Assembly (NCBI GenBank): GCA_944372445.1 | Contig: CALVZE010000002.1 | Coordinates: 37,175-101,174, forward strand | Source: an uncultured Clostridia bacterium | GTDB lineage: Bacteria > Bacillota > Clostridia > Christensenellales > UBA1242 | Direction of reading: 5' to 3' | DNA length: 64,000 nucleotides | Shown here: positions 42,549-64,000 of the stretch, in pieces | How positions within the stretch are numbered: the first letter of the stretch is position 1 | Layout: each line of letters starts with the position of its first letter | Translations under genes and position numbers: made by a program | Notes under the pieces: generated by a model | What the model was told of the DNA's origin: nothing | Seen by the model: only the letters and a program-made list of their open reading frames with translations | Database searches by the model: none

Positions 42549-42648
42549 AATCCCTCCAAATTTAACCTTAGTTTGTGTGAATATTAGGAGTTTATACTTT
42601 TTTTGTTTAAGTTTTTTATGGTTGGACAAAATTTATTATGAGGTTAAT

Positions 42649-43107: not shown

Positions 43108-43168
43108 TTCTTCTAAAATATTAAGTCATTTAAGGTTTGGTTTACAAGATTAACAAAATGAGGTGAGT

Positions 43169-43804: not shown

Positions 43805-43947
43805 CGGAGTGATACCGCCGTGAATATCTAATACAAAAAATCTATAATAGAAGGAGGTTTTATTGGTATCAAAAAAATTCAAAAAGTGGTTGAAATATGC
43901 CACTTTTTTGAAATTGATATGTTATAATGAAAGAGAGGTAAATTGTT

Positions 43948-44340: not shown

Positions 44341-44423
44341 ATGATTGACAAAAGAACGGATAATATGATAAAAGAAAGGGTTAAATTTTGTATTATTGTT
44401 ATGTTCATTAACTTTATTGTTTA

Positions 44424-44452
44424 TTGACTTTTATTAAATAAATTGTTATAAT
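44424..44452 (+). promoter_or_regulatory. sigma-A-type promoter of the BspA-like gene
   Basis: TTGACT (44424-44429), a 17-nt spacer, then TATAAT (44447-44452). A GGGAGAAA SD precedes the ATG at 44471. Confidence 0.55.
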
Positions 44453-44470
44453 AAAATACAGGGAGAAAAT

Positions 44471-47400
44471 ATGGAAATAAAGAAATTTTTGATATATCCG
44501 TTAATTATTATTCTTATGGTGGTTGCTCCTATATTTTTGTTGACAGCTTGCGGTTCAACAAAATATATAGTAAAATTTGATTCGTGTGGAGGAAGTTATG
44601 TCGAAAACATCACAGTTGAAGAAGGAGAATTGATCGATGAACCAACCCCACCAACAAAAGATGGGTATGAATTTGGTGGATGGTATATAGATCAAGATTT
44701 TAATTATGAATTTAGATTTGCCGTTGATACCATAAATAAAGATACAACTCTCTATGCAAAATGGGATGAGCCAATAACTTATTATACGATAACATTCGAC
44801 ACTTGTGGCGGAACTGAAGTTGAAAGCCAAGTTATTGAAGCCGGAGCATTTTTGCAATACCTTAAAGCAACTCATAAAGAAGGTTATCATTTTGAAGGTT
44901 GGTATTATGATCAAATCTATACTAGACCTTTTTCAATATCAACTCCAATAAACTCTAGTTTTATCCTTTATGCTAAGTGGGAACTAGAAAGGGAAAATTA
45001 CTTAGTAAAATTTGATTCGTGTGGAGGAAGTTATGTCGAAAACATCACAGTTGAAGAAGGAGAATTGGTCGATGAACCAACTTCGCCAACAAAAGAAGGA
45101 TATGTTTTCATAGGTTGGTATCTTGATCAATGGTATAATAATATATTTAAATTTGATACCTACAAAGTTACAAATGATATTACACTTTATGCTAAATGGG
45201 AAAAACAAATTTCGTATTTCACAATCACTTTTGATTCTTGCGGTGGTAGTGTTGTTAATAACCAAATAATAGAAGAAGGTGGAAAAGTTTCTATTCCAAA
45301 TAATCCAATAAGAGAAGGATTTGAATTTGATGGTTGGTATACAAGCCAAGATTACAACGAACAGTTTAATTTTGAAACAATAATAAATACAAATATAACT
45401 TTATATGCAAAATGGTTGGATAAAAGTTTAACATATACTGTAACTTTCAACTCTATGGGAGGTAGCGAAGTTGCAAACCAAACTGTTTCAAATGGATCTT
45501 TATTACAAAGGCCACAAGATCCTGTGAAGGAAGATTTGTCATTTGATGGCTGGTTCAAAGATGAGAATTTTAGTGAAAGATTTGATTTTGAAACGGAAAA
45601 AATTACAAATAATATTACGCTTTATGCTAAATGGCTCGCACCCGATGAAATCTTTTCATTTAGCTTAACAAGTGATTATAGTTTTTATATTTTGACAAAA
45701 TATACAGGAACAGCAACAAGTGTTGTAATTCCTAGACTTTATAATGGACTACGCGTTAATGCAATAGGTGCTAATGCTTTTAAAGACAATGAATATATTG
45801 AATATATTGAAATTCCAAATACAGTAGAGATTATAAGGCAGTCAGCATTTGCTAATTGTACAAATCTTTCGTTAATCATAATTCCTGGAAATGTTAAAAA
45901 TGTGGAGCAAGATGCATTTAATGGATGCGTAAATTTAAAAAATGTTATTGTGCAATCAGGTGTAGAAAATCTTGGAGATCGAGTTTTTCAAGATTGTATA
46001 TCTTTGAATAATGTAAATTTAGAAAATGGTATTTTAAGCATCGGAGCAATGGCTTTTGATAATTGTTTGTCATTACAAACAATCACTTTGCCTAATACTG
46101 TTACATCCGTTGGACCAATGGCATTCAGACATGCAGAGGCAATGAAATCGGCTGTTTTATCAACAGGAATGACTGATATTTCCAATGCAATGTTTCAGTA
46201 TTGTATTAGCCTTAAAAGTATTGATATCTTAACAAATATCAAAAATATAGGAAACTCTGCATTTAGTTATTGCTACAAATTAGAAGATGTAAAATTCCTT
46301 GGCAAAATTTCAACAATGGGCAATTCTGCATTTTATGATTGCCGAAATATTGAAAATATTTATTGGGCATCAGAAAGCTCAGGAGATTATGGTGAAAATA
46401 ACTATATTTTTTACAATGGAGGAGTTGATTCAACAGGAATAGAATTGACAATATCTGCAAGTGCAAACATTCCTGTGGGACTTTTTAAGCCATATCAAAA
46501 TTCAAACATTCCTAAAATAACTAAAATTATCTTTGAAAATGGCACAGTTTCTATTACATCAAATGAATTTAAAGATATGCCTTATTTGCAAAATATTGTG
46601 GTTCCAGACACTGTAACAACAATAACGTCAGGAACATTTGATAATACACCATGGTGGAATGTCCAACCAGACGGACTTGTATATATTAATAATGTACTTT
46701 ATGCATATAAGGGGTATGCCCCAGTAGATGGAAATATTGTCATGAGAGACGATATAGTGTCAATCGCAAATGCTGTATTATCTGGTGTGAGTGGTATAAG
46801 AAGTTTGACATTACCATTTGTTGGGCAAACAGCGAATCCTGAAGGAGAGAACGGAAAGTTTGCATATCTCTTTGGTACAACAGAAAATATACCAGTTTCA
46901 TTAACAATTATTATAACAAATGTTACTCGAATCGCAGATGAAGCATTTGCAAATTGTAAAAATTTAACATCAATTAAACTACCAGATAGTGTGACAAGCA
47001 TTGGGGATTCAGCTTTTAGTGGTTGCACTGGTTTGACTTCAATTATAATTCCAGATAGTGTCACAAGTATTGGAAGATTAGCTTTTAGCGGATGTTCGTC
47101 TCTTGAAAGTATCACATTGCCATTTGTTGGAAGTTCAAGAGATGCTACAGGAGATGATGGAAAATTCATTTATGTTTTTGGAATGGCGTCAGCTTCATTA
47201 TCTACTGTTATTATCACAAATGCCACTCAACTTGTAGATGAAGCATTTGCAAATTGTAAAAATTTAACATCAGTAACAATTTCGAACAGTGTTACAAGTA
47301 TTGGGGATTCAGCTTTTAGCGGATGTTCGTCTCTTGAAAGTATAACATTACCATTTGTTGGAAGTTCAAGAGATGCTACAGGTGAGAATGGATTGTTTGG

Positions 47401-49706: not shown

Positions 49707-52700
49707 ATGGGACAATTTTTGGAAGATCAAAAGAAAATAGAGAATTCATTTAAGTGCACAAATGATTATATTATTGATACTAAAAAATTATTGGAAATTA
49801 TTATGCAAGCTTTTTATGATAGAAATTCAAGCAAGCTTCCTATGATAGATATAGAAAATTTTATTATCAAAACTTTAAAATTGCAGCGTTTTGATAATTA
49901 TAAAGGACTACGTAAACTTTTAGGTAATGATAGATTAACAAGTTTAGAAGATATAAAAAGGAAGTATGGAGATGTTGTAGAAATTAAAGATATAAAGCCG
50001 CAAAACGAAAAATATATTAGGCCATACAAAGATAAAAATAATGATATTGAATATTATTATATGACAAAAAGTAAAAGGATACCTCTGAAAAATGTTGTTG
50101 ATGATGTATATAACTATTTCACTAGGAAAAATGCAAAAGTAATATCATTAAGTGATATTTATGATTATTTGAGAAGGAAATATAACGTTGGATCTTTTAA
50201 TAGAAAAAATTTAACAGATCTTTTAGGATCTAATGTTAATATTCCATTAAGCAAAGTTGAAGCATTATATATAAATTACAATAGGATCAATCAAGAAGGT
50301 TTAGATTTTGGTATTCTTACATATCTATTTGTTAATAACAAAAAATTGATACAAAAAGTTTTAAATAGTTTAGGTAAAGATTTCTTAATATTAATATTAA
50401 AATATGGGTTAAGGTCAATAATAAATATTACAAACTCGTTAAATTTATATTTTGATAATGAAAAAGATGTTTTGGAATTGGCTGACAATAAAAAGGATAA
50501 GGTTTTAGATAAACAAAATTCTGAAATGCTAATAAGATTTTTAAATCTGTTTAAAGATGAAGAATGGCAAAATATTCTAGCAAATGATAATCAAATCAAT
50601 GAGTATATAGAAATGTTTGTTGAAGATGAAAAACTTATTCTCGAAAAAGAAAATTTTAGAAAGACAATTAAATCATATTATAATCTAATAAACGAAAATA
50701 ATTTAGATGCAAACACAAAATATCTATTTCCATTTAAAATTGCTTCAATATTTCAGGAAGCTAAAATATACAAAGTAAAAGATTTAGTCCATATCAACAA
50801 GGACATTAGTATAAAGTTATTTGAATACAAGAAACAATTTATAGAAATTGTAAAACGATTACAAATTGATTTGCAAAAATATTTAAATGAGCAATTTAGT
50901 TATATATTGCAAATGGTTAATAAAAATTATCAACCTGCAACATTGTGGCGAAGTTATGTTTCAATTCTTGATGATCGTTCGAAAGGTAAAACGCTTCAAG
51001 AGGCTGGCGATAATGCTGGTGTGACAAGAGAAAGAGTTAGGCAACTTGAACGTAAGTATGCAACTATGTTCAATGGCTTTTATAATGCACCTAATGGCAA
51101 TCTCAATAATCTTATCAGAGCATTTGTCTCTAATTCTTTATTTTTAACTGACACCGATATAATTAGAATCTTTCCGTTTAATCCACGATTATTTAAATAT
51201 TTTCTTTTAAATACTGAAATAGAAGGGCTTATGTATATTGAAGAAATTGGTAAGTTTTACTTTGTTGATGATTATGATTGGTATAAGGAATTATTAATTT
51301 ATATAGATGAACTTCCATCACAATTCAATATTAACGAGCTTGATTCTATAATATCTCAATGTTTGAATAATTTGTTAAAGAATGATATAAAACTTGATTA
51401 TGATGATTGTAGTAAAATACTTTTACAGAATTATAAATTAATTGGATCTATATATTCAAAAACTATATTAAGTTTGGCTGATAAATTTGCAAATTTAATA
51501 AAGAAGTATTATCCAAATCCTGTTAATATATATGATAGTAAATTTTTATCGGAATTTAGATCTTTGTATTATAAAACTTATGGTGATGATAAAATTAAGA
51601 CAGATCACGCCATTACTTCTGTTATAGCAAGAATAGGTATGCTTGTGGGTAGGGGCCTATATGTTTTGAATGATAAAATGTTTATGAGTGAAGAACTTGC
51701 CTATAAAATCTATAACTATATTATAGATAGTGGTAGACAAATTTTTTTAACTAATAACCTTTATGAAATTTTTAAAGAAGAATTGCAAGCGGAAGGAATT
51801 GATAATAAGTATTTTATGCAGGGGGCTTTAAAACAAAGATTAGGAGATAAGTTATTCTTCCGTAGAGATTATGTAAGCACTACCAATGAAGTGACATCAG
51901 TTTATGGAGAAATGGTTAAGTTTGTAAAAGACGCGAAAAGAATAGTAAGTTATGATGAAATTCAAGAAGAGTTTAAAGGGACTCCGTGGAATGTTTTAAT
52001 CTTCGCACTAAGTCAAGACGACATATTAAATTATAGATCAAAATATGTGCATAAGGATACATTACAAATAGATGAAAATGATATTAACTACCTAAAAAAT
52101 GTGATAGATAATCTTGTTAATGATGGAAGAATACATCATATAAATGATCTATATACTTTCATAAAATTAACAAATAAAAAACTTTTAGATAAATTATTTG
52201 TAGATAGTCACTTTGCATTATTTAGTGTTATACAAAGTCTATTTGAAAGTGATTATGAAATGAAGAGACCATTTATAGCAAAGAAAGGAACAGTAATTGA
52301 AAATCAAATAGATCGTATTAACGAATTTGTTAGAAGCAATGAAATTGTTTCGATTGATTCTATTTTGGATTTTGTTTCTGACAATAGGCTGCATTTATAT
52401 AGTATAAGTGAATATGTTGATTCTCTTGAAGATTATGTTTTTAAAGATGACAAAAGTATAATTGAGTTAGAGAAAAGTGGTATCAATAAATATAATGTTG
52501 AAGTTGTAGAGAAAATGATATTAAAAGCAATGAAAGATGAAGAATTTTTATTTGCCGACAAACTGCCATTTTATAATCTATTTCCAAAAGGAGTAGATTG
52601 GACTCCGTGGCTTGTGTATAGTGCATTAAACAAGTTTGGTGTTTATTTAAAGGCAATACCATCTGATACGATGTTTAAACGCAAAGATGTTATTTTTGCT

Positions 52701-52832
52701 AGACCACTTATCATAAAAAGAGAAGTAAAGGCGACAAACATCAATGAGTTTGTGCAGTATTTAAGAGATAAAAAACAAATGAATGATACAGAATTTTATA
52801 AGTATTTAAGAACGAAAGGGCTAACGGAATAG
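49707..52832 (+). CDS. large (1041 aa) protein with a central sigma-70 region-4-like helix-turn-helix; otherwise unknown
   Basis: GKTLQEAGDNAGVTRERVRQLERKYATMF (nt 50985-51056) matches the region 4.2 pattern (xTLxEIGxxxGVTRERVRQIExKA). I found no NTPase or nuclease motif. The sequence is very K/N/I-rich. Confidence 0.55.
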   Translation: MGQFLEDQKKIENSFKCTNDYIIDTKKLLEIIMQAFYDRNSSKLPMIDIENFIIKTLKLQRFDNYKGLRKLLGNDRLTSLEDIKRKYGDVVEIKDIKPQNEKYIRPYKDKNNDIEYYYMTKSKRIPLKNVVDDVYNYFTRKNAKVISLSDIYDYLRRKYNVGSFNRKNLTDLLGSNVNIPLSKVEALYINYNRINQEGLDFGILTYLFVNNKKLIQKVLNSLGKDFLILILKYGLRSIINITNSLNLYFDNEKDVLELADNKKDKVLDKQNSEMLIRFLNLFKDEEWQNILANDNQINEYIEMFVEDEKLILEKENFRKTIKSYYNLINENNLDANTKYLFPFKIASIFQEAKIYKVKDLVHINKDISIKLFEYKKQFIEIVKRLQIDLQKYLNEQFSYILQMVNKNYQPATLWRSYVSILDDRSKGKTLQEAGDNAGVTRERVRQLERKYATMFNGFYNAPNGNLNNLIRAFVSNSLFLTDTDIIRIFPFNPRLFKYFLLNTEIEGLMYIEEIGKFYFVDDYDWYKELLIYIDELPSQFNINELDSIISQCLNNLLKNDIKLDYDDCSKILLQNYKLIGSIYSKTILSLADKFANLIKKYYPNPVNIYDSKFLSEFRSLYYKTYGDDKIKTDHAITSVIARIGMLVGRGLYVLNDKMFMSEELAYKIYNYIIDSGRQIFLTNNLYEIFKEELQAEGIDNKYFMQGALKQRLGDKLFFRRDYVSTTNEVTSVYGEMVKFVKDAKRIVSYDEIQEEFKGTPWNVLIFALSQDDILNYRSKYVHKDTLQIDENDINYLKNVIDNLVNDGRIHHINDLYTFIKLTNKKLLDKLFVDSHFALFSVIQSLFESDYEMKRPFIAKKGTVIENQIDRINEFVRSNEIVSIDSILDFVSDNRLHLYSISEYVDSLEDYVFKDDKSIIELEKSGINKYNVEVVEKMILKAMKDEEFLFADKLPFYNLFPKGVDWTPWLVYSALNKFGVYLKAIPSDTMFKRKDVIFARPLIIKREVKATNINEFVQYLRDKKQMNDTEFYKYLRTKGLTE

Positions 52833-52894
52833 TTGGCTCTTTTTAGTAAATATGAAAAATATACTAAATATTTTATAAATATTTGAAAAATCTA

Positions 52895-52923
52895 TTGACT
52901 TTTAGCGATAATATTGCTAAAAT
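52895..52923 (+). promoter_or_regulatory. near-consensus sigma-A promoter of the ten-gene operon
   Basis: TTGACT (52895-52900), a 17-nt spacer, then TAAAAT (52918-52923). An AAGGAG SD precedes the ATG at 52952. Confidence 0.6.
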
Positions 52924-52951
52924 ATAACTATCAAAGTCGAAGGAGAATAAT

Positions 52952-53173
52952 ATGTCTAAACAAAAACGCGAAAATTTTGTTAGACTAGCAGAAACTAGAA
53001 CTAATAAAATTTTGGATATGATAAGGTTGTTAGGTAATTTATCCAACACATCGAACTATTCTTATACAAAGGAAGATGTTAACAAAATTTTTTCAACATT
53101 AGAGAAAGAGTTGGAAAATACTAAAAAGAAGTTTGATACAATTGGATCAGATGATAAATTTACATTGTTATAG
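52952..53173 (+). CDS. small helical protein, first gene of the operon (possible regulator)
   Basis: 73 aa with an AAGGAG SD. The next gene starts 8 nt after its stop. Confidence 0.55.
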   Translation: MSKQKRENFVRLAETRTNKILDMIRLLGNLSNTSNYSYTKEDVNKIFSTLEKELENTKKKFDTIGSDDKFTLL

Positions 53174-53181
53174 GAGGAAAA

Positions 53182-55086
53182 ATGGAAGCTAAATGGTCAT
53201 TCCCGTCAAGTAATGGTGGTGAAAAACGAGGATTAAACGATTCTGGAATAGAAACTTTTAATGATAATCCAATAAAATCATTGGCAAGAGAGATTTGTCA
53301 AAATTCTCTTGACGCAGTAATTTCTGGGCAAAGGGCAATTGTTGAGTTCAATACTTTTACATTGGATAAAACTGATTTTCCAGATGTGTATGGTTTTACC
53401 GAAATTTTGGGGAAATGCTTAGATTATAGCAAAAATAATGTTAATCATAAAACCCCATTGTTTTTTGAAACTGCTCTAAATAGAATAAACAAAGATAAAA
53501 TTAAAATGTTGAGAATAAGTGATTTCAATACAACTGGCTTAAAGGGGAACGACTGGGACAATCTTGTAAATAGCTCTGGTTCTTCGGAAAAAGAAGAAGG
53601 TAAAGGCGGATCTTTTGGTATTGGTAAAAATGCACCATTTGCTTGTTCAGAGTTTAGAACGGTTTTTTATAGCACATTAGATCTTGATGGAAATCAAAAA
53701 AGTAAAGGTGTTTCAAAACTTATATCATACAAACTAGATGATAATGCTGATGGTTCAGAAAATGTTTCTCAGGGCACTGGATACTATGGAGTAGTGACTC
53801 CTTACAATATAAATCATTTAGAAAATATGTTAAATCTTGATAAAAGTTTTTCACGAGCTTCATCTGGAACGGATATTTTTGTTTCTGCTTTAAAAATTAT
53901 TAGTGAGGAAGAATTTAAGTCTAATATTATTGCAGAAGTTTTAGATGGATATTTAATAGCAATTTGGAATGGTAAATTAGAGATAAAAGTTAATGGTTAT
54001 ATTATTAATAAAGAAACACTTTCAAATGTTATTCAAGAATACAAAAAATCATTAAATGACCATACTGTTATGTGTTTTGAACTTTTAATTGATAACACAA
54101 CTATTTGGCAGAAAATACCTGTTTACATATCAAATACATTACCACTTGGAGATATTAATTTTGGGTTTAAACTTAGATATGATGGAAGTAATAAAGTCTC
54201 TATGATTAGAAGTTCGGGGATGAAAATTCTAGACAAAGGGGGATTGTGTCCGTCTCTAAGATTTGTGGGAATGGCAATAGTTGAAGGTGACGCCTTAAAT
54301 ACATTTTTAAGGGGATTAGAAAATCCATCTCACAATAAATGGGAACCACAAAGGAGTTCTGATCCATCTGCTGCAAGAAATCTTCTTAAAGATATGTATA
54401 ATAGTTTAACCGATAAATTGAATGAAGAGGCTTCTAATGCATTTGACGATCAAATAGATATTGAAGGGGCTGGTGACTATTTGCCAGACGAAATTGAAGA
54501 TGAAAATAACAAGAATGTAGATAATGTAAAGAAAGAAGAATCTTTAAATAAAATAATTGATGTTGAGGTTAAAGTCATACAAAAACCAAGAAGTATTGCT
54601 CATCTTGAAACTGATGAGGTCGGAGATGATATAGAAACAACAATAGAAGCTGAGGGAGAACCGACAGAAGGAACGAATTATGATGGATTTGAACATCAAG
54701 GAAGTAAACCACACGGAACGGGGGAAAGAGATTTTGATGATGTAGGTATGCTTGATAGTGATGAATTTAGAGGAGAAGAATTAATTACTGTTAAAGCAAA
54801 AGATATAAGAATTTTCTGCATTAACAAGAAAGAACAATTATATCGATTGATTTTTACACCTACGATAAATTCAAGTAAAGGATATATTGCTATTACGAAA
54901 TTAGCAGAACAGAATGAAAAAATGCCAGCTGAAATTATTTATGTTAAAAACCCTGATTTAGAATTCACAAAAAACAAAATAGGTTATTTTGAATTTAAAG
55001 ATGACCAACCTTGTAAAGTCGATATTAAAATAGCAGGGGAAGAATATTCAACAATGGAGGTAAAATTGTATGCATATAAAGGCTAA
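53182..55086 (+). CDS. GHKL-superfamily (MORC/paraMORC/Hsp90-like Bergerat fold) ATPase
   Basis: The N-box is EICQNSLDA (53290-53316). A DxGxG-like segment DFNTTGL is at 53521-53541, and the G-rich lid GGSFGIGKNA is at 53605-53634. There is no DHp/HisKA region, so it is not a sensor kinase. About 400 aa of unknown C-terminal region follow. Confidence 0.7.
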   Translation: MEAKWSFPSSNGGEKRGLNDSGIETFNDNPIKSLAREICQNSLDAVISGQRAIVEFNTFTLDKTDFPDVYGFTEILGKCLDYSKNNVNHKTPLFFETALNRINKDKIKMLRISDFNTTGLKGNDWDNLVNSSGSSEKEEGKGGSFGIGKNAPFACSEFRTVFYSTLDLDGNQKSKGVSKLISYKLDDNADGSENVSQGTGYYGVVTPYNINHLENMLNLDKSFSRASSGTDIFVSALKIISEEEFKSNIIAEVLDGYLIAIWNGKLEIKVNGYIINKETLSNVIQEYKKSLNDHTVMCFELLIDNTTIWQKIPVYISNTLPLGDINFGFKLRYDGSNKVSMIRSSGMKILDKGGLCPSLRFVGMAIVEGDALNTFLRGLENPSHNKWEPQRSSDPSAARNLLKDMYNSLTDKLNEEASNAFDDQIDIEGAGDYLPDEIEDENNKNVDNVKKEESLNKIIDVEVKVIQKPRSIAHLETDEVGDDIETTIEAEGEPTEGTNYDGFEHQGSKPHGTGERDFDDVGMLDSDEFRGEELITVKAKDIRIFCINKKEQLYRLIFTPTINSSKGYIAITKLAEQNEKMPAEIIYVKNPDLEFTKNKIGYFEFKDDQPCKVDIKIAGEEYSTMEVKLYAYKG

Positions 55087-55948
55087 GCTTTATCCATATC
55101 CTGTGCTGGCTGACTTTAACGATGATTATGTTGGTAGCAAGTTTAATGTTGAAATTTCTGTTCAATTATATCCAAATGAATTAGTTGTATTGTTTAGACC
55201 AACACTTGCAAATGTGCAAATTCAACAGCTAATCAATGATAACAAAGCAAAAATAATGGTGCATATTGAATGTCCATTAACAAGTTTTAGAAAACTTATA
55301 GATATTCCTAATGAAGGCATTGAATATAAAATACCAGCTGATTCTATTGAAGGCCCTATGTCATTTTGCCCTTTTATTATAGCAACAAGTGAAATAAATA
55401 ATTATACAAATGATGATTTAAACAAAGATTATGAAGGAGCAACTTTTGATTTTGAAAAAGGTAATATACTTGCAATTGGAAAGGAAGTTCAGACAAGAGT
55501 AGAGAAAGAGAATGATGACCTAGCAAGTGTGCCATCAATTTTTGCTGTGACAGAGATAAAAGATGAAAATAAAAATGAAATTGTTATTGACAATACTGGA
55601 AATAAAATAAATATACAATTACCTAGTAAGACATTTCAGGAATTTAAAATAGCAATGTCAAATCCAAGTTCAATGGCAGTTATTCACGCAATGACTATAA
55701 TTCCAGCGTTGATGAAATGTTTTTCAGATATGAAGTCAAAGCCAGAAGAGTTTTATTTATACGAAGATAAACGATGGTTTAGAGCTTTAAAGAAAGCTTT
55801 GAAAAAAATAAATTTTGATTTAAACGAAGAAACTATTTTATCACTTGACTCATTTGATATTGCTGAAAAACTTATGGATAGCACAACGAATAGGGCAATC
55901 TTAGAAATAAATGAAATTGCGTTTAAAGGAGATGTCAATGATGACTAA
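55070..55948 (+). CDS. hypothetical protein, partner 1 of the GHKL ATPase
   Basis: 292 aa. A GGAGG SD lies 9 nt upstream and sits inside the GHKL gene. The start overlaps the GHKL stop by 17 nt. Confidence 0.55.
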   Translation: MHIKAKLYPYPVLADFNDDYVGSKFNVEISVQLYPNELVVLFRPTLANVQIQQLINDNKAKIMVHIECPLTSFRKLIDIPNEGIEYKIPADSIEGPMSFCPFIIATSEINNYTNDDLNKDYEGATFDFEKGNILAIGKEVQTRVEKENDDLASVPSIFAVTEIKDENKNEIVIDNTGNKINIQLPSKTFQEFKIAMSNPSSMAVIHAMTIIPALMKCFSDMKSKPEEFYLYEDKRWFRALKKALKKINFDLNEETILSLDSFDIAEKLMDSTTNRAILEINEIAFKGDVNDD

Positions 55949-56702
55949 TTTGGAAATCCTATCAGAAGATAAAATTTTAACTTTAAAGAATAACAAAGAT
56001 CAAGTACTTGATTGTATGTTGTCTAGCAGTGATAATTCTTGGTTAAAAGATTTTTTCCGTGAAGAAAATCCTTTTTCAAAATCGAAATTAATGGTGAAAG
56101 ACTTTGATTTAAAGATAGCTAATGATGAAAATTTATCTACATTTGATTTAGATAATGCTATAACATTGCACGAGAATTTACATTTGACAGATAGTCAGGC
56201 TTGTGATGAAAGATTATGGATAAGTCTATGTTTGGGTAAATTCTATGATTATATGCAAAGTCGATGGAACGTCAAAACAAGATCAAATCTAAGTGAACAC
56301 TGGCTATTTCCACACGGACAAAAAAGAGGATTGTATTTTAATGGAATTTCAAGATTATATTGGTTTGCTCATATTACTTATGATGAAACTCTTGATGATC
56401 CTTATGAAATAACTAAATTTTGTTTTAAGGATATTAATATCGTTTTGCAAATGATATATAGAGGATATTCAAATTCTAAAAATGTAAGATTGGCTTTATT
56501 AAAAGCTATAAAAGTCTTTGTAGAAGATGGTGGCACTTATAATAGGAAAATATTACACGAGATTTTAAAATACGTATCTTTTTTAGGGGGAGCATATATT
56601 TTAGATTCTTTTACCGAAAAAGAATTATTTGATAAGTGTTATTTGAAATTAATTGATTTGTATATCGAAGAATATCCAGATCAAAAGATTTTTAAATTGT
56701 GA
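55938..56702 (+). CDS. hypothetical protein, partner 2
   Basis: About 254 aa. An AAGGAG SD is at 55926-55931, and ATGATGACTAA overlaps the previous stop. I recognise no motif. Confidence 0.55.
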   Translation: MMTNLEILSEDKILTLKNNKDQVLDCMLSSSDNSWLKDFFREENPFSKSKLMVKDFDLKIANDENLSTFDLDNAITLHENLHLTDSQACDERLWISLCLGKFYDYMQSRWNVKTRSNLSEHWLFPHGQKRGLYFNGISRLYWFAHITYDETLDDPYEITKFCFKDINIVLQMIYRGYSNSKNVRLALLKAIKVFVEDGGTYNRKILHEILKYVSFLGGAYILDSFTEKELFDKCYLKLIDLYIEEYPDQKIFKL

Positions 56703-56703
56703 G

Positions 56704-56838
56704 ATGGCTATGGGAAGAAGAAAAAATATACCGTTATGGTTTGTGCCAATACATTTTGGTTATAGTTTTATTAAAGATATATTATCGTGGAAGGTCCCGG
56801 GGAATGGGAAACGACGCAGAAGAAGAAGGAAATACTGA
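56704..56838 (+). CDS. 44-aa micro-ORF with an Arg6 C-terminal tail
   Basis: The peptide is MAMGRRKNIPLWFVPIHFGYSFIKDILSWKVPGNGKRRRRRRKY. It starts 2 nt after the upstream stop. Its TGA overlaps the SNF2 ATG as TGATG. Confidence 0.4.
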   Translation: MAMGRRKNIPLWFVPIHFGYSFIKDILSWKVPGNGKRRRRRRKY

Positions 56839-59441
56839 TGATAATTAGTAATAACTTGCAGGCACATTACATTGCTAAAAAGATAAATAAGCAATATGAG
56901 ATAGGGAAGAAAGAAAACTTAATACCGGTTTATCTAAATAACGGTATTGAGATTTTTTCTCATCAAATTTATGCCGCTTGTTATGCTTTATCAAATCCTT
57001 TTGTGAAAGGCTTTATTTTGGCAGATGAGGCAGGGCTTGGAAAAACTATGGAAGCACTTTTAATTGTTTCTCAGTATGCAAGAAGAGAAAAACGAGTGCT
57101 GATTATTGTTCCATCGCCAACAGTTAATGACTGGCTTTTAGATATAATTAGAAAGTTTGAAATAAGGTGCTACATTTTAGAAAATATTGAAAGACCTATA
57201 AATGAAATGTATAGGACTAGTTTAGATAAATTTGAATACGGAGTAGTATTAACGACGTATGATTATGTCTTGTCTAATAGTGAGAAGTTTAATGAATATA
57301 ATTGGAATTTATGTGTTTTAGATGAAGCGCATAGATTTAGAAGTTATAAAATTAAAGAAAACAAAACGGCGGAAACAATTTTATCTATAATTCCAAATGC
57401 AAAGAAAATTTTGCTTACTGCTACGCCAATACAAAAGAATGAAGATGATATTTTTGGACTTATAAATTTCATTGATGACAGCATATTTACCGACTATGAC
57501 GAATTTCACAAAAAGTATTTTAGAAAGCCTGAAAACTATCCAGAGTTAAGAGATATTATTGCGCCATATACATTTAGAACATTGCGTAGTCAAGTGCGTT
57601 TGGAAACAAAACTTACAGAGCGCGAGATTTTAACTCAAATATATAAAATGACGGAAGATGAAGAAAAACTTTACAAGATGATTGAGAGTTATATCTCAAA
57701 ATCGTCGCGCTTTGCTTTTCCAGAAATGGACCCTTATGAATTATCTTTAATGCTTTATGGGACACTGTCATCTTCGGCGTATGCTTTAAGTAAAACATTG
57801 TCGGGCATTTATGCAAGATTAAACAAAAGACCAACACAAGAAAATCAAAAAGAGATTGAAGAAATTCGTGATATGCTTGATGTGGCAAGTAAGATTAAGA
57901 TAAACAATAAAGATAAAATGCTTCTTGCCGCACTAGAAAAAACTTTTTCGTCTTTTCACAAAAAGGGGTTGCCTAAAAAGTGTGTTATTTTTACAGGCAA
58001 CACACAGTCACAAGAACATATCCATAAACTTTTAATGGAATATACTGACTATTTAATTTGTTCTTTTAATGGCACAACCGATGATGAACCTATTAAGAAG
58101 TTTTTAAAAAGTGAAAATCCTAGTGTGTTGATTTCTACCGACAAAGGCAATGAAAGTTTGAATTGGCAAAACGCTTGCTTTATTATTAACTATGACTTTC
58201 CACAAGTTTTGCTTGATATGGAGCAAAGAATTTCTCGTTGCCATAGGATAGGGCAGGCAAGTGATGTTTTTGTCATCAATTTTATATGCCCGGACAACTT
58301 TTCAGATGTGAGAATGTATGAACTTTTTTATAAGCGTGTCAATATTTCAAACAGCATTGTTGGTGCAAGTGACAAAATTATCTCTGGTGCGATTGATGGG
58401 AATATAGAGCAAAACATTGTAGATATTTTGTCAGGTGTGAGAAAGAAAAAAGAAGTGCAAATGGATTTTGCTGATTTGGGCGAGCAATTTAAGCAAGAAC
58501 TTGAAGAAATAAGAAACGACGCTAACACAATGCTTTTTAACACATTCAACAAGAATTTGATTGAACGCACAAAAAATATGGCAGAGATTATTCGAAAGCA
58601 GGTTAGCGACTTAAAATCGACTATAAGTGACCTTGCTCATTACTATTTTAAAGATAAGTTTATCACGGACACAGAGTTTGAAGTTAAAACAAAATGGCAC
58701 GACAAAAATGTTTATGCCAAGCCATTCGTTTACACTTTGACAAACAATAAAGATTATTATCAATTTACATTAAATAGCGAACCTTGTAAAGATATGATTT
58801 TCAATCTCACTAGTTTTATAGACTTGAAACCAACGCATTATATAATGGAATCAAGCGAGAACAAGGGATTGAAAGGGTATATTGCTCACTTTAACATACA
58901 AATTTCAATGCAGTTTAATTTGTTTGATGAAAGTTTGCTTTTGGGAATTGACGAAAATGGCAATTTGTTAGATAGTGAAACTTGTGAACAAATTTTAATG
59001 ATGAAAGGAACTCCACAAAATGAAGAGCAATTAGATGAACAAGTTGTGAATAAATTAAACGAACTTGCTGATGAAAAGATACCTGAAATCATCGAAAGTT
59101 TGAAGATAAAATATAGCGAAGATTTAAAGCTTCCAATTTCACATCTTAATATGATTGCAAACGACAAGAAAGTAAAACTTGAAAAAGAAATCAAAGCCTT
59201 ACAAAAAGAAATTGATAATTTAAAAGATAATTCTTATGGTGATAATTTTGGTGATAAATTTGCTAAAAATCAACAGATAAATGAACTCACAGAGAAACTT
59301 TTTGAGTTAAAAGACAATGAATTTCTTGAAAAATCTAAAATAAATCGTGAATTAAAGGCAAAAAGTGAAGAATTATCTAAAAATTTGGAAGTAAAGATAC
59401 ACAAATCAAATGATTTTATGATATACTTTGAAATGAGGTAG
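56838..59441 (+). CDS. SNF2-family (SF2) helicase/translocase
   Basis: Motif I is LADEAGLGKT (57024-57047) and motif II is DEAH (57321-57332). Motif III is LLLTATPIQKN and motif VI is RISRCHRIGQ (58236-58256). A coiled-coil-like C-terminus follows. Confidence 0.85.
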   Translation: MIISNNLQAHYIAKKINKQYEIGKKENLIPVYLNNGIEIFSHQIYAACYALSNPFVKGFILADEAGLGKTMEALLIVSQYARREKRVLIIVPSPTVNDWLLDIIRKFEIRCYILENIERPINEMYRTSLDKFEYGVVLTTYDYVLSNSEKFNEYNWNLCVLDEAHRFRSYKIKENKTAETILSIIPNAKKILLTATPIQKNEDDIFGLINFIDDSIFTDYDEFHKKYFRKPENYPELRDIIAPYTFRTLRSQVRLETKLTEREILTQIYKMTEDEEKLYKMIESYISKSSRFAFPEMDPYELSLMLYGTLSSSAYALSKTLSGIYARLNKRPTQENQKEIEEIRDMLDVASKIKINNKDKMLLAALEKTFSSFHKKGLPKKCVIFTGNTQSQEHIHKLLMEYTDYLICSFNGTTDDEPIKKFLKSENPSVLISTDKGNESLNWQNACFIINYDFPQVLLDMEQRISRCHRIGQASDVFVINFICPDNFSDVRMYELFYKRVNISNSIVGASDKIISGAIDGNIEQNIVDILSGVRKKKEVQMDFADLGEQFKQELEEIRNDANTMLFNTFNKNLIERTKNMAEIIRKQVSDLKSTISDLAHYYFKDKFITDTEFEVKTKWHDKNVYAKPFVYTLTNNKDYYQFTLNSEPCKDMIFNLTSFIDLKPTHYIMESSENKGLKGYIAHFNIQISMQFNLFDESLLLGIDENGNLLDSETCEQILMMKGTPQNEEQLDEQVVNKLNELADEKIPEIIESLKIKYSEDLKLPISHLNMIANDKKVKLEKEIKALQKEIDNLKDNSYGDNFGDKFAKNQQINELTEKLFELKDNEFLEKSKINRELKAKSEELSKNLEVKIHKSNDFMIYFEMR

Positions 59442-59443
59442 AG

Positions 59444-60580
59444 ATGTTTAGAGCTTGGGAAACCTTTGATGAAAAACTTGATAAATTTTTAAAGAAAAAG
59501 TTAGATTATGAAAATAGTGATTTTCATAGTGATTTTTTGCTTGAAAAATTGCAGAAAGAAATTGAGGAACATTTATTTTTGGAGAAAAGAATAAATGAAG
59601 TGTTTAAATTATTACAAAGTCAGTTTAAGTTTAGTGAAGAAATATTGAAAAGTATAATTCTTCCAGATTCAAGTTTATTCAAATTATCAAATAAAGATAT
59701 TATTTTGAGATTTAAATACTATATTGAGTTATTTGGCAATAAAGACCTTTTGTGTAAGGTTATTAAGGGATTGAGTTGCTTTTATGGAAACGATAAGTTA
59801 TTTAGTTGGAAAGATATGTATCAAGCAAAAAGGCAAATGGATTGGATAAAAGAATTTTTTAATTTAGATGAATATAGCACAAGAATTTTTATTATTAATA
59901 ATACATATTTTTTTGCAAAAGAACCTAAAAAGTTAGAGCAAAAAATAGAAGATTATGCGAAAATTCTTGGAGTAGATGTTGAAGTCATAAAAGATATTTG
60001 CTTATTTACACCGAGCGGGTTTTACAGTAGCACTACTGAAAGACTAGAAGAAAAAGTAAATAGGTTTTCAGAAATATTTCAAATAGATTTGAATACAACA
60101 AAAAAACTATTTGTCAAATATCCATTTTTAATAAATAATCCAATTACAATATACACAAAATGTTTTAATTTATTAAAACATTTATCAGCAAATGCTTCAT
60201 CTTTAATAGTTGAGAATCCATTTATTATTGATTTGCTTAATTACGATGAAAAAACTTATTGTGGAAATTTTGACAGATTTGATGATTTTATTGACAATAT
60301 TAAATTTATTAAACAAAATATAGGTGAAATAATTCGAGCCTATTCTTGGATACATAATGATAAATTATTTTCATTTTGTATAGTAAAAAAAAGTGATAAC
60401 AAAATAGAATGTGTTGTTTTTGGCCTTAAATGTGGAGATGTATTAAATACAAATATAGATAAATTTTATTTGCATAATGAATGGATAATTCCTAGCTATT
60501 TACTTATGAATTGTAAAGAAAATTATGTGGAGAATATGCTTGAAGAAATATTAGAAGATATTTCTAAAAAAGTTGAGTAA
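59444..60580 (+). CDS. helical-repeat protein (mTERF-like periodicity), function unknown
   Basis: 378 aa with about six units of 35-37 aa. Examples are SEEILKSIILPDSSLFKLSNKDIILRFKYYIELFG and VDVEVIKDICLFTPSGF...RLEEKVNRFSEIFQ. It starts 3 nt after the SNF2 stop. Confidence 0.45.
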   Translation: MFRAWETFDEKLDKFLKKKLDYENSDFHSDFLLEKLQKEIEEHLFLEKRINEVFKLLQSQFKFSEEILKSIILPDSSLFKLSNKDIILRFKYYIELFGNKDLLCKVIKGLSCFYGNDKLFSWKDMYQAKRQMDWIKEFFNLDEYSTRIFIINNTYFFAKEPKKLEQKIEDYAKILGVDVEVIKDICLFTPSGFYSSTTERLEEKVNRFSEIFQIDLNTTKKLFVKYPFLINNPITIYTKCFNLLKHLSANASSLIVENPFIIDLLNYDEKTYCGNFDRFDDFIDNIKFIKQNIGEIIRAYSWIHNDKLFSFCIVKKSDNKIECVVFGLKCGDVLNTNIDKFYLHNEWIIPSYLLMNCKENYVENMLEEILEDISKKVE

Positions 60581-60599
60581 AAATCAAGGGAGTAATAAA

Positions 60600-62588
60600 A
60601 TGAATAAATTAGACGGACAAAGTATGGATTTGGTTAAGGAAAATGTGGAAAAACTTAAAGAGTTGTTTCCTAGCATTGTGAAGGAAGATAAGATTGATTT
60701 TGATGAGTTGGAGTTGCTTTTAGGCGAAAATATAAACCGCAACAATGAGCAATATTCTTTTACTTGGAATGGTAAGACGGAAGCAACTAAACTTGCTCAA
60801 AAGCGTTCCACAGGCACTCTGCGTCCTTGCAAAGAAGAAAGTAAAGATTGGGATAACACTCAGAACCTTTATATCGAAGGGGATAACTTGGAAGTGTTAA
60901 GACTTTTGCAGGCGTCTTATAATGGTAGAATTAAAATGATATACATAGATCCGCCATACAACACTGGTCACGATTTTGTGTATAAAGATAACTTTGAAGA
61001 TAATATCAAAAATTATAAAGAGCAAACAGGACAAGCACAAAAATCAAATGCAGATACAGATGGTCGTTATCACACAAATTGGCTTAATATGATGTATCCA
61101 CGCCTTAAACTTGCAAGAAATTTGCTTACTGATGATGGTGTAATATTTATTTCAATAGATGATAACGAACAGGCAAATTTGAAGAAAATTTGTGATGAAG
61201 TTTTTGGCGAAAATAATTTTATAGGAATTATGCCAAGAATTACTAAAAAATCTGGGAAGCAACATAGTGACACAATTGCCAAAAATAATGATTACCTTAT
61301 AATCTATTCTAAAAATCTTTACGAAATAAGTTTTAATGGATTAGAGTCAACAGGGGAAGGTTTTGATAATGTTGATGAGTATGTAAATGAGAGAGGAAAA
61401 TATAAGTTAAATCAAACATTAGACTATGATTCGCTCTGGTATAATCCAACGATGGATTTTGAGATTAAGGTTGGAAATAATATTTATTATGCAGGTGGAA
61501 GTAAAGAAAAACACGATGAAAGACATAATGGCAACCATAATGCAAAAGATTGGGTTTGGAGATGGAGTAAAGCAAAATTTGATTTTGGTTATCAAAATGG
61601 GTTTGTTGTAATTAAAGAAGGCAAAGATAGACCTAGAATATATACAAAAACTTATCAAAATGCAAAAATAGATAAGGACGCTAGTGGAAGATATTACATA
61701 AATTATGTTTCAAGAGATAACACAATTAGTTCACTAGAATTTGTTAACAATATATATTCAAATGATAATGCAAAAAAAGATTTGGCAGAAGTAATAGATC
61801 CAAATTATTTTGACTTTCCAAAACCTATAAGTCTAATAAAAAAATTAATTCAATTAATATGCAACAAACAAGATATAGTATTGGATTTCTTTTCTGGATC
61901 AGCAACAACTGCACAAGCAGTTATGGAATACAATCTTGAACACAAAACTAACATCAAGTATCTTTGCGTTCAATTACCTGAAAAAATTGAAGAAAATTCA
62001 AAGGCATACTCTGATGGACTTAAAAATATTTGTGATATAGCATTAACCAGAATAAAAAATGCAGGAGAAGCGCTTGAACATAAATTTATAGAGAATAATA
62101 AGATACTAAATCATACTAAGGAAACAAAAAATCCATTACACAGTTTTTTAAAAGAGTGGGATAAATTGATTTCGTTCGATACAGGTTTTAAAGTATTTAA
62201 ATTAGATAGTTCAAATCTTAAAAAGTGGGATAATACACCAACGAGAGATGTTGATACTCTTAAAGCTAGAATTCAAACAAGTATGGATTATCTTAAAGAT
62301 GATAGAAATGAATTTGATTTAGTTTATGAAGTTATGCTTAAATATGGAATTGACTTATCATATCCTGTAAAAAAGACAGAAAATGAAAAGGCATACATTG
62401 TTGAAGCACCAGAATACAAACTTTTAGTTTGCACAATGCCAAATATATCACTTGACGATGTTGAAAGTTTTGCAAATGAAAATGTTGGAACATATCTCTT
62501 TGCTGACCGTTGCTTTGGCTCTGACAGTTTACTTATCAATACCGAAGAAATCCTAAAATCTCGCAACAAAGAAATGAGGTTGTTTTAA
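60600..62588 (+). CDS. mod: type III R-M Mod-like N6-adenine/N4-cytosine DNA methyltransferase (beta class)
   Basis: The DPPY catalytic motif (IYIDPPYNTG, 60948-60959) comes before the AdoMet motif DFFSGSATT. A variable middle region acts as the target-recognition domain. AAGGGAG SD. Confidence 0.85.
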   Translation: MNKLDGQSMDLVKENVEKLKELFPSIVKEDKIDFDELELLLGENINRNNEQYSFTWNGKTEATKLAQKRSTGTLRPCKEESKDWDNTQNLYIEGDNLEVLRLLQASYNGRIKMIYIDPPYNTGHDFVYKDNFEDNIKNYKEQTGQAQKSNADTDGRYHTNWLNMMYPRLKLARNLLTDDGVIFISIDDNEQANLKKICDEVFGENNFIGIMPRITKKSGKQHSDTIAKNNDYLIIYSKNLYEISFNGLESTGEGFDNVDEYVNERGKYKLNQTLDYDSLWYNPTMDFEIKVGNNIYYAGGSKEKHDERHNGNHNAKDWVWRWSKAKFDFGYQNGFVVIKEGKDRPRIYTKTYQNAKIDKDASGRYYINYVSRDNTISSLEFVNNIYSNDNAKKDLAEVIDPNYFDFPKPISLIKKLIQLICNKQDIVLDFFSGSATTAQAVMEYNLEHKTNIKYLCVQLPEKIEENSKAYSDGLKNICDIALTRIKNAGEALEHKFIENNKILNHTKETKNPLHSFLKEWDKLISFDTGFKVFKLDSSNLKKWDNTPTRDVDTLKARIQTSMDYLKDDRNEFDLVYEVMLKYGIDLSYPVKKTENEKAYIVEAPEYKLLVCTMPNISLDDVESFANENVGTYLFADRCFGSDSLLINTEEILKSRNKEMRLF

Positions 62589-63413
62589 ATGCAAAATAAT
62601 AATATATTGGGAATTTCAAAAAGACATTTTACTGTTTATATAATTACTTTTTTAATTTCTATTGGTTTAATTTTTTGTGTATTTGTTCCAGATGAAAATT
62701 GGTCAATGATATGTGTATCAATAGGCACAGGTGGTGTTACGTCGGCCCTTGTAGGTTATTTTATAGATTTAGTTAACAGGCAACAAACACTTGATATAAG
62801 AAGTAAAAGTTTAGCAGAATTTGTTATACAATATAAACAATATATTCAACAATTCATGTTTGATGTTTTCTTCATATTAGTTTTTCATTATAATGAACTA
62901 GAAAAAACTAAATGTTATTCAATTTCATTAAACAATTTTAAAGAAAAGTTTCCACTTAAATTTGAAAAATTTGAATTTGAAGCATTTGAATTTGTTAGAG
63001 ATAAAAACTCCATTAAAACGAACGAAGAAAAGCATTATAAATATTTATGTTCAAAGAATGTTTTGCAAAATACTAGATTTAGAATATTGAATATAGCTGC
63101 TTGCATTGAAAAAATAATAGCACAGGATTTATACAATTTAACAGATTACTTTGATCAAGATGAAATAAAGTTGATGACTACAATTTATATGTATATAAAT
63201 AATACAGGATTTAATAATTTTGAAGACTATTTTTATGTTTTTAATTTATTAACTGATAAATCATTAACTAAAATAATAGGATTATATCCAATTGATAATA
63301 TAAAATATTATTATGAATATGAAAAGGTAAATGAGATTAAACAGAACAATATACAATGGTCTATATTTAATTCAAATTTAAACGATAAAAATAAGTCAAT
63401 TGAAGAATTATAA
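62589..63413 (+). CDS. two-TM membrane protein inserted between mod and res, function unknown
   Basis: 274 aa. The ATG directly abuts the mod TAA (TAAATG). TM helices are FTVYIITFLISIGLIFCVF and ICVSIGTGGVTSALVGYFI. A soluble domain of about 200 aa follows. Confidence 0.55.
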   Translation: MQNNNILGISKRHFTVYIITFLISIGLIFCVFVPDENWSMICVSIGTGGVTSALVGYFIDLVNRQQTLDIRSKSLAEFVIQYKQYIQQFMFDVFFILVFHYNELEKTKCYSISLNNFKEKFPLKFEKFEFEAFEFVRDKNSIKTNEEKHYKYLCSKNVLQNTRFRILNIAACIEKIIAQDLYNLTDYFDQDEIKLMTTIYMYINNTGFNNFEDYFYVFNLLTDKSLTKIIGLYPIDNIKYYYEYEKVNEIKQNNIQWSIFNSNLNDKNKSIEEL

Positions 63414-63427
63414 GGATAAATACAAAA

Positions 63428-64000
63428 ATGAAACTTAAATTTAAAAAACAAGAATTTCAAGAAAAAGCGGTGATGTCCGTTGTGGACTTGTTTAGGGGAG
63501 CAAAAAATGTGCCTTCAACTTTTTCGTTACAAAAAGTCGATTTGGTGGATATGAGTAAAGATGAGCTTCTTGGGTATGGCAATAATTTAGATTTGCCTAT
63601 GGAAGAAATTGAGAAAAATATGCACGAAATCCAAGACAGAAATCTTTTACCACTGACGGAGTTGAAAGAGCTTCGTTTTAATATTGAAATGGAAACAGGA
63701 ACTGGTAAAACTTTTGTTTACACGAAAACTATTTTGGAATTACATAAACAATATGGCTTTAAGAAGTTTGTAGTTATTGTTCCAAGTGTGGCAATTAGAG
63801 AAGGTGCATATAAATCAATGCAAACTACTCGTGATTATTTCAAACGCGAATATGAAGGTGTGACACTTAAACCTTTTATCTACAATTCAGCAAAACTATA
63901 TGAAATAAAAGACTTTGCGCTTTCTACAAATTTGGAAGTTATGATTATCAATATTGACGCTTTTAAAAAGAGTGAAAATTTGTTTAATCAACCACCAAAA
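63428..64000 (+). CDS. res: type III restriction enzyme Res subunit (helicase-nuclease), N-terminal 191 codons; continues past the window
   Basis: My own translation reads MKLKFKKQEFQEKAVMSVVDLFRG...RFNIEMETGTGKTFVYTKTILELHKQYGFKKFVVIVPSVAIREG. Motif I is at 63689-63712. The frame is open to the window end and is absent from the ORF track. Confidence 0.85.
   Translation, partial: MKLKFKKQEFQEKAVMSVVDLFRGAKNVPSTFSLQKVDLVDMSKDELLGYGNNLDLPMEEIEKNMHEIQDRNLLPLTELKELRFNIEMETGTGKTFVYTKTILELHKQYGFKKFVVIVPSVAIREGAYKSMQTTRDYFKREYEGVTLKPFIYNSAKLYEIKDFALSTNLEVMIINIDAFKKSENLFNQPPK

Follow-up and report, generated by a model that had tools for sequence, protein, structure and literature searches.

The right-hand end of a 64,000-nucleotide (nt) stretch of DNA from an uncultured Clostridia bacterium (GenBank contig CALVZE010000002.1, positions 37,175 to 101,174; the whole stretch is called the window) is likely to carry two independently mobile defence modules, arranged head to tail and probably read through from one conserved promoter. 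Judged by homology to other loci, module 1 comprises 49707-56702 and module 2 runs from 56838 to beyond 64000, with a break in homology at 56826. Module 1 is a cassette of the genes g0, g1, A, B and C, in which A encodes a predicted GHKL ATPase, and module 2 holds the genes for an SNF2-family helicase and a type III restriction-modification (R-M) pair, Mod and Res, together with two slots (X and Y) for variable genes. The region had originally been predicted, from the letters of the window, to encode a single undescribed composite defence system of ten genes. The assignment as a defence locus of partly uncharacterised function stood, and the single ten-gene unit did not, since the two halves occur separately in other genomes.

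Relatives of module 1 were gathered as 16 genome loci, from a scan seeded with a narrower B alignment and analysed by tblastn and clustering of open reading frames (ORFs), and as 80 metagenome loci, annotated with custom hidden Markov models (HMMs); loci are given as L001 and upwards where they have to be told apart. B and C were present in all 16 genome loci and A wherever the contig extended to it; SNF2 was found in only 2 of the same loci, and type III Mod/Res in 4, in three arrangements. Relatives in which A was 33-40% identical had the order (HTH_17)-(Vsr)-C5 methylase-g1-A-B-C-g0, and the metagenome loci kept g1-A-B-C(-g0), with SNF2 only in the closest relative. Altogether, dozens of loci carried the cassette without SNF2, Mod or Res, so that no conserved linkage to these three was seen for relatives of the 292- and 254-amino acid (aa) proteins. 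Module 2 also occurred by itself. L024 (88% DNA identity) carries SNF2-158aa-Mod-274aa-Res beside RNase_T and YpsA genes, with no genes of PDC-M33, the PADLOC candidate to which A, B and C belong, and it is homologous to the window from 56826 onwards, a point 12 nt ahead of the SNF2 start codon. The order SNF2-[X]-Mod-[Y]-Res held at SNF2 identities of 65%, 30% and 28% (L108-L113), with no PDC-M33 nearby, and SNF2 always preceded the Mod/Res pair in this layout. The identity rankings also disagreed between the two modules: A was 74%, 58% and 57% identical to the window in L001, L002 and L003, and the Res N-terminus 71%, 80% and 92%, respectively, and the ranking of Mod/Res identities across loci did not track that of A, B and C. 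In L026, B was split by a 2.65-kb insertion and the R-M module was intact.

The close spacing of the modules bears on another reading of the locus, in which the paraMORC cassette and SNF2/Res would be two restriction arms of one machine or pathway, both reading the mark of a single Mod. Only 135 nt separate the modules, which share a strand and have no terminator between them, so that co-transcription and cooperation are possible, and within the clade Mod/Res of one family adjoins the cassette in three ways: after SNF2 (L001, L002 and L028), directly after C (L006) and upstream of g0 (L003). These observations weigh against independence of the modules, and the three arrangements look like more than random adjacency within an island. 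Such a composite would also agree with the tight packing of the genes on one strand behind one conserved promoter, with the presence of a methyltransferase next to the cassette of 26 among 30 relatives, Mod being the sole one at this locus, and with the predicted cooperation of MORC/paraMORC ATPases with superfamily 2 (SF2) helicases and methylases (PMC2292703). Each half nevertheless occurs alone, even at the strain level (L024), the identity rankings of A and of the Res N-terminus are incongruent, the broken cassette of L026 has kept its R-M neighbour, and Mod has a cognate Res of its own; close same-strand packing under one promoter is no proof of a single system. We therefore regard one composite system as unlikely and two head-to-tail modules as the likely arrangement, within which it is possible that the cassette and Res share the Mod mark, as the cassette nearly always adjoins some methyltransferase.

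Table 1. Positions of the genes and other features of the two modules in the window
Feature	Position	Strand	Evidence or description
g0, 1041 aa, σ70-region-4 helix-turn-helix (HTH) at about aa 424-450	49707..52832	+	Pfam Sigma70_r4, E 2e-5
Intrinsic terminator of g0, 12-bp stem then U-run	52814..52843	+	ΔG −15.4 kcal/mol, z −5.64
Promoter TTGACT-17-(TG)TAAAAT, with repeats from 52866	52895-52923	+	Promoter scan; −10 TG-extended
g1, 73-aa small protein heading the cassette	52952..53173	+	Conserved in relatives
A, 634 aa, predicted paraMORC-type GHKL ATPase	53182..55086	+	PADLOC PDC-M33A, E 8e-181
B, 292 aa, partner of A	55070..55948	+	PADLOC PDC-M33B, E 5e-91
C, DUF6339, 253-254 aa (263-aa product in model searches)	55938..56702	+	PDC-M33C, E 5e-64; Pfam DUF6339, E 4e-46
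Spacer between the modules, with 44-aa ORF	56703..56837	+	Sequence; boundary at about 56826
SNF2-family helicase, 867 aa, first gene of module 2	56838..59441	+	Pfam SNF2-rel_dom, E 5e-42; Helicase_C
X slot, 378-aa helical guest protein	59444..60580	+	Sub-threshold mTERF match only
Type III Mod	60600..62588	+	PADLOC MTase_III, E 1e-182 (residues 10-666); Pfam N6_N4_Mtase (PF01555), E 1e-34
Y slot, 274-aa guest with N-terminal membrane segment	62589..63413	+	Hydrophobic segment, residues 13-31
Type III Res, N-terminal 191 codons	63428..64000	+	PADLOC REase_III, E 5e-57

In the ORF map, a co-directional and closely packed run of ORFs extends from 52952 to the end of the window, and all of the junctions listed in the original prediction were found where they had been placed: gaps of 8 nt (53173/53182), 2 nt (59441/59444), 19 nt (60580/60600) and 14 nt (63413/63428), a 17-nt overlap (55070/55086), ATGATGACTAA at 55938-55948 and TAAATG at 62586-62591. 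The near-consensus promoter ahead of this run was likewise present. Promoter-like matches in the A+T-rich region numbered 117, relative to 100±10 expected, and the −35 TTGAC of this promoter was unchanged in the matching intergenic region of eight related loci, the proteins of which were 43-75% identical there; because of this invariance, the promoter is taken to be more than a chance match. AT-rich AAATATTT repeats (52866-52891, detected by TRF) lie just 5' of the −35 element, and AT-rich direct repeats resembling AAATATTTGAA were kept upstream of it in the aligned regions of L001-L016. The repeats may be an operator or UP element, and candidate proteins that may bind them are g1 or the σ4 HTH of g0. 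No convincing terminator was found inside the gene run, as had been claimed; the terminator scan gave three matches overall (3.0±1.9 expected), and two weak ones within the run were both located in the Res coding region.

The left boundary of the cassette lies further upstream than the predicted 52895. Homologues of g0 stand directly 5' of g1 in 9-10 of the 16 genome loci (including L001-L003, L005, L007, L008, L011 and L016), and in distant relatives the g0 homologue is located directly 3' of C instead, which confirms that g0 belongs to the cassette; on these comparisons, g0 is its fifth conserved gene, beginning at 49707. In the window g0 is indicated to be transcribed separately, owing to the strong terminator at its 3' end, for which none of 200 shuffled sequences folded as well. 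The σ region 4 of g0 was also recovered in a profile search against the Protein Data Bank (PDB; E 1e-8). In L008 (4704-5300) and L016 the g0 homologue has an extra N-terminal DUF3427 and an HhH domain resembling the RNA polymerase α subunit's C-terminal domain (α-CTD), and α-CTD matches were also seen in the g0 homologues of L017 and L023; it is unusual for a single protein to unite σ4-like with α-CTD-like modules. The small gene g1 was present in most loci by tblastn (detected in 11 of the 16 genome loci), and its HMM found it in 45 of 68 non-redundant loci, with 21 positions at least 90% conserved among 53 sequences. It had no match in Pfam, PADLOC or NCBIfam.

A PADLOC scan assigned A, B and C to PDC-M33A, PDC-M33B and PDC-M33C, as full-length matches that were adjacent and in this order, and Mod and Res to MTase_III and REase_III, respectively. 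PDC-M33 corresponds to cassette CAS_00129 (three families, 98 RefSeq instances), and is one of 145 PADLOC phage-defence candidates proposed, by guilt-by-embedding, from loci of BREX, DISARM and type I R-M systems (10.1101/2024.01.29.577857). The genes of the window resemble this entry in matching its three models end to end and in the same order, and here they stand beside R-M genes; the catalogue entry differs in consisting of three genes without assigned fold or function, to which g1 and g0, the GHKL-transducer fold of A and the methyltransferase linkage (26 of 30) are added here. Regarding the claim that the system was undescribed, its function is indeed partly uncharacterised, but the cassette was already a PADLOC candidate and the link of paraMORC ATPases to R-M genes had been predicted by Iyer, Abhiman and Aravind in 2008 (PMC2292703). 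The locus is a new arrangement of catalogued, uncharacterised parts. The count of at least five genes without a nameable motif is likewise out of date, the 634-, 292- and 263-aa products being PDC-M33A, PDC-M33B and PDC-M33C, the last also DUF6339. In a literature search, no paper containing 'PDC-M33' or 'DUF6339' was found, and queries on GHKL or MORC proteins with an anti-phage role returned mostly eukaryotic MORC papers.

The assignment of A as a GHKL protein was correct at the level of motifs and fold. Its GHKL domain and transducer are followed by a disordered linker (residues 422-483) and a C-terminal β-sandwich, and it carries the motifs E37xxxN41xxD44A, D114xNTTG, G143SFGIGK and E380xxxH384. 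Residues E37, N41, D44, A45, D114, G119, G143, G146, G148 and T160 were 98-100% conserved among 85 sequences, and the ExxxH motif at E380-H384 (ENPSHNKW) 100%. The AlphaFold2 model had a mean predicted local distance difference test score (pLDDT) of 78.5 and was confident over residues 1-420. Foldseek searches with it returned TRAP1/Hsp90 (9e-9), MORC2 (4e-8) and MORC3 (7e-8, template modelling score 0.49), and further Topo VI-B, GyrB, ParE and SMCHD1, the matches to GHKL structures having a probability of 1.0 over 435-490 columns; over this same length the transducer region aligned with the MORC3 and GyrB 43K structures. From these alignments, A is a predicted GHKL-plus-transducer ATPase. No Pfam GHKL model matched any of 14 A-family members, even at E ≤ 5, a PDB profile search with A gave nothing meaningful, and NCBIfam gave nothing. 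A was accordingly rejected as a MORC protein proper (of the Pfam HATPase_c_3 type), the likeness being at fold level only.

According to PMC2292703, an ExxxH motif C-terminal in the S5 domain is the hallmark of paraMORC2, a family found mostly in Gram-positive bacteria. A has both the GHKL and S5 modules and the conserved ExxxH, and is thus placed, by motif and predicted fold, with the paraMORC2-type proteins. The likeness to the paraMORC2/MORC operons of that paper extends from the GHKL plus S5/transducer ATPase with ExxxH after the transducer, and the Gram-positive distribution, to the neighbouring genes, which include C5 or adenine methylases, Vsr, SNF2 helicases and type III Res-like helicases. 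Unlike the operons in the passages considered, which do not mention B, C, g0 or g1, the present cassette has these as partners, and its core has no associated nuclease.

For B, the AlphaFold2 model (pLDDT 85.4) consisted of an N-terminal β-sandwich and a C-terminal helical domain. Only generic FN3/Ig β-sandwich matches were found by Foldseek, with no enzyme assignment, and a PDB profile search gave nothing meaningful. The B family comprises 3291 clusters at 50% identity, with H65, E67, C68, R74 and S156 as conserved residues, and the 17-nt overlap of A and B is conserved. An 'FDxEKG' stretch was rejected as a PD-(D/E)xK site because its K and E are not conserved in distant members. The insertion that splits B in L026 (572-3222, at about 55431-55437 in window coordinates) encodes a regulator of the HTH_5 type and an HMA/P-type ATPase; bases 55431-55437 of the window are found on both sides of it, which suggests a 7-bp target-site duplication. 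In C, the conserved residues are N73, D90-E91-R92, W94, R109, W142, D149 and D223, and no PDB relative was found by profile search; NCBIfam gave nothing for B or C. At three loci (L009 10860-12404, L010 3661-5223 and L012 756-2144), a further stretch of about 260 aa, comprising a low-complexity linker together with a conserved terminal domain, is fused to the C-terminus of C, and these loci are without g0 and g1 and are flanked by UvrD or superfamily 1 (SF1) helicases.

To quantify the methyltransferase linkage, loci were collapsed to 61 A-clusters (90% identity), of which the 30 with at least 2.5 kb on each side were kept. A methyltransferase was adjacent to the cassette in 26 of these 30, comprising 22 C5 enzymes, 3 type III Mods and 1 N6_Mtase/S fusion, which lay upstream in the same orientation, downstream behind g0, or in convergent orientation right after C. 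No conserved restriction enzyme was found beyond the linked methyltransferase, where variable relaxases, recombinases and HTH controllers were seen. On a Ligilactobacillus salivarius megaplasmid the order was HsdS-HsdM-80aa-A-B-C, and on a conjugative Lactococcus lactis plasmid A-B-C lies between an AlwI restriction enzyme and AbiGI/GII. Neighbours of the cassette at other loci included AbiEii, a reverse transcriptase and Fic. Viral contigs yielded only 7 weak loci among 2.9 million.

These neighbourhoods also bear on whether g1-A-B-C(-g0) might serve the mobile elements that carry it, by chromatin-like silencing, maintenance or exclusion and not by immunity, with an orphan methyltransferase shielding the element from host restriction. 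Many relatives are indeed located on small mobilisable or integrative elements or on conjugative plasmids, with serine recombinases, Mob_Pre or MobL relaxases, AAA_25 and HTH_17 as neighbours, no nuclease is recognisable, and g0 has DNA-binding domains of transcription type (σ4 and α-CTD). Defence genes are, however, typical cargo of mobile elements anyway, PADLOC picked the cassette for its embedding in BREX, DISARM or type I R-M loci, its neighbours also include AbiG, AbiE, reverse transcriptase and R-M genes, and it is very rare on viral contigs. A mobile-element function was consequently considered very improbable.

For the function of module 1 in defence, the best-supported interpretation would be a methylation-gated, ATP-driven DNA-clamp system, which follows the paraMORC logic proposed in 2008 (PMC2292703). 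Whereas gene content, folds, modularity, methyltransferase linkage and slot variability were shown, every biochemical step given for module 1, like the part played by SNF2, is inferred. A would dimerise on ATP like other GHKL clamps and, together with B and C, act on DNA bound by g0. Self DNA would be spared through the mark of the linked methyltransferase, which is a C5 enzyme in most relatives; in the window, the type III Mod would be the only candidate for the marking enzyme. The effector step might be blocking or compaction of the BREX or MORC kind, or else B or C might contain a novel active site. Topological entrapment of DNA by MORC-1 (abstract of PMC8277788) is consistent with a clamp. 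A more far-reaching proposal is that g1-A-B-C-g0 forms the restriction arm of a new methylation-gated immunity, analogous to BREX, which has no recognisable nuclease and uses a MORC-like ATP-driven clamp, and which could be plugged into any class of DNA methyltransferase (C5, type III Mod or type I-like HsdM/S), here sharing the Mod mark with the Res/SNF2 arm; this is offered tentatively and is considered rather unlikely. If true, two mechanistically different restriction arms would operate under one methylase in the window. Several observations weigh against these functional proposals. Intact cassettes without a linked methyltransferase were found at L004, L005, L007, L009, L011, L013, L030 and L064, which weakens a strict R-M logic for module 1, and no nuclease or other effector was recognisable in A, B, C, g0 or g1. 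The locus is a real defence locus that was over-interpreted as one system, and it is known here from sequence and predicted structure. It is also speculated that g0, with its σ70-region-4-like and α-CTD-like parts, could serve as a decoy by which phage factors directed at RNA polymerase are sensed.

In type III R-M, a site is marked by Mod, and DNA that lacks the modification is cut by Res once sites have communicated in an ATP-dependent manner. The identities originally given to SNF2, Mod and Res were supported by the Pfam and PADLOC matches. Motifs of the DPPY and FxGxG types (IDPPY and FSGS) are present in the Mod translation, and the truncated Res of the window could be completed from L025, a gut metagenome contig 100% identical to window 55734-64000, in which Res has 979 aa and matches REase_III (7.9e-288 over residues 1-973) and Pfam ResIII and RE_endonuc. 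Type III membership was thus found for Mod in the window and for Res at full length. As in EcoP15I and EcoP1I, Mod belongs to the β-class N6/N4 methyltransferases and its target-recognition region is variable, and Res combines an SF2 ATPase with RE_endonuc over the full-length models; unlike in those systems, a guest gene here separates mod and res, and the SNF2 helicase and a second guest slot precede the pair. Mod of module 2 would methylate its site and Res (ATPase plus PD-(D/E)xK nuclease) would cut unmodified DNA, with a dedicated SNF2 translocase ahead of the pair and the two hypervariable slots carrying guest defence genes.

The scaffold SNF2-[X]-Mod-[Y]-Res, which appears conserved in the loci compared, is the second result of this analysis. 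Near-identical gut contigs were 88-98% identical to the window save for two swapped blocks, the gene between SNF2 and Mod and the target-recognition region of Mod. Elsewhere the X slot held a 158-aa lipoprotein-like ORF, AbiTii, PDC-S54 (421 aa), a 212-aa coiled-coil protein, a 253-aa or a 117-aa protein, or nothing, with AbiTii or PDC-S54 as X in near-identical sister strains, and the Y slot of relatives held unrelated proteins of 113-265 aa, or nothing. As proteins in the same slot were unrelated across loci, X and Y were rejected as conserved components, and the 378- and 274-aa genes of the window are, by this comparison, interchangeable guests and not fixed components. No match was obtained for the 378-aa protein in PADLOC or NCBIfam, nor for the 274-aa protein in PADLOC, Pfam or NCBIfam. 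The target-recognition region of Mod (about 61226-62175) is replaced in L024, L026 and L027 (70% identity or none) between flanks that are 92-98% identical, implying allelic switching of specificity by recombination; a repeat search revealed no phase-variable tract in mod. Where SNF2-X-Mod-Y-Res stands alone in related Clostridia (L108/L109 and L024), it has a YpsA-family gene on one side and a gene for a LexA-like S24 peptidase on the other, flanks that suggest a conserved chromosomal hotspot for the island.

Membership of other known systems was rejected. The layout of module 2 resembles the Hma/embedding architecture, that is, helicase-[guests]-methylase-[guests]-ATPase with same-strand guests, some of them known from defence (in this case AbiTii and PDC-S54; Payne et al. 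2021, 2024). The SNF2 protein, however, matches HmaA weakly (E 1e-28, relative to 2e-100 for DrmD), and there was no Hma model among the best 25 of 33 matches of Mod or among the matches listed for the full-length Res, type III models being best. DISARM hallmarks were equally lacking, as were those of BREX and Dnd, in the PADLOC scan, in agreement with the original prediction. DISARM class 1 consists of the SNF2 protein DrmD together with DrmMI, DrmA, DrmB and DrmC. The N-terminal lobe of the SNF2 protein of module 2 does resemble DrmD_b (E 2e-100, residues 42-347) and stands beside an adenine-type methylase, but its score of 330 bits compares with an NCBIfam DrmD_b cut-off of 950, DrmB (DUF1998) and DrmC (PLD) were not found, and DrmA appeared only as a weak secondary match to the SNF2 core (E 1.9e-17). 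The C-terminal half of the SNF2 protein resembles BrxHI (E 1e-45), and none of the ten proteins matched PglZ, BrxC/PglY or PglX. As for GHKL proteins in defence, Mza was reportedly described by Gao and colleagues in 2020 as a GHKL-containing defence protein, and an N-terminal GHKL ATPase is found in an anti-phage context in Shedu type I-D/paraMORC3 (VcSduA; PMC12137116). A shares with both an N-terminal GHKL ATPase with motifs I-IV. It has neither DUF4263 nor PD-(D/E)xK, its C-terminus being a β-sandwich with Ig-like matches only, so that Shedu/paraMORC3 membership was rejected, and among PADLOC models A matched none other than PDC-M33A.

The 44-aa 'Arg-tailed' ORF between the modules (56704-56838), originally counted as one of the ten genes, can very probably be discounted as a gene. 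The RRRRRRKY at its end results from translation of the purine-rich ribosome-binding (Shine-Dalgarno) region (GAAGAAGAAGGAAA) of the SNF2 gene, and the ORF was not called by gene callers in L025 and L027, contigs that are identical or 99.7% identical to the window. In L001 some 14 nt separate C from SNF2, and in L002 the distance is 52-79 nt, according to which SNF2 start is taken; neither gap has room for it. No unusual RNA fold was found in the spacer 56703-56837 (z 0.18).

The locus lies in an A+T-rich island, as predicted, the G+C fraction falling to 0.25-0.30 from 48 kb on, relative to 0.29-0.41 (mostly 0.32-0.38) upstream. Ahead of the island, 36902-49192 encodes very large surface proteins, namely a 1159-aa S8 protease-like protein and a 1573-aa BspA-type leucine-rich repeat (LRR) protein, and a tRNA-Leu(AAG) gene is located on the minus strand at 36622-36703. 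No Rfam RNA elements were found in the window. Past Res, L025 (10645-17576) continues with an 84-aa FtsK-gamma-like winged-helix protein, a 1106-aa DUF559 and DEAD helicase with matches to DpdF/PsyrT models (E 2e-72), coiled-coil and WG-repeat proteins of 183 and 587 aa, respectively, and a LexA-like S24 peptidase; these five genes may form a further defence module. At two other loci (L013 1494-7064 and L098 334-4839) the cassette is flanked by a divergent Hsp70-like ATPase, accompanied in L013 by a β-CASP/metallo-β-lactamase nuclease and a coiled-coil protein, and in L098 by a 982-aa protein, with a DUF499 protein downstream. Both of these Hsp70-like loci are possible further candidates for defence systems.

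The SNF2-[X]-Mod-[Y]-Res scaffold, with its two swappable slots, offers a further setting for 'guilt-by-embedding' discovery, in which the 378- and 274-aa proteins are candidates. MORC-type GHKL ATPases act in transposon silencing in animals and plants, and their bacterial relatives, predicted in restriction systems in 2008, have to our knowledge never been characterised. The g1-A-B-C-g0 cassette is compact and widespread (3291 B clusters), a methyltransferase accompanies it at about 87% of the well-sampled loci, and its occurrence on plasmids of Lactococcus lactis and Ligilactobacillus salivarius places it in hosts with routine phage assays and methylome work; it would thereby provide a tractable entry to bacterial MORC biology.

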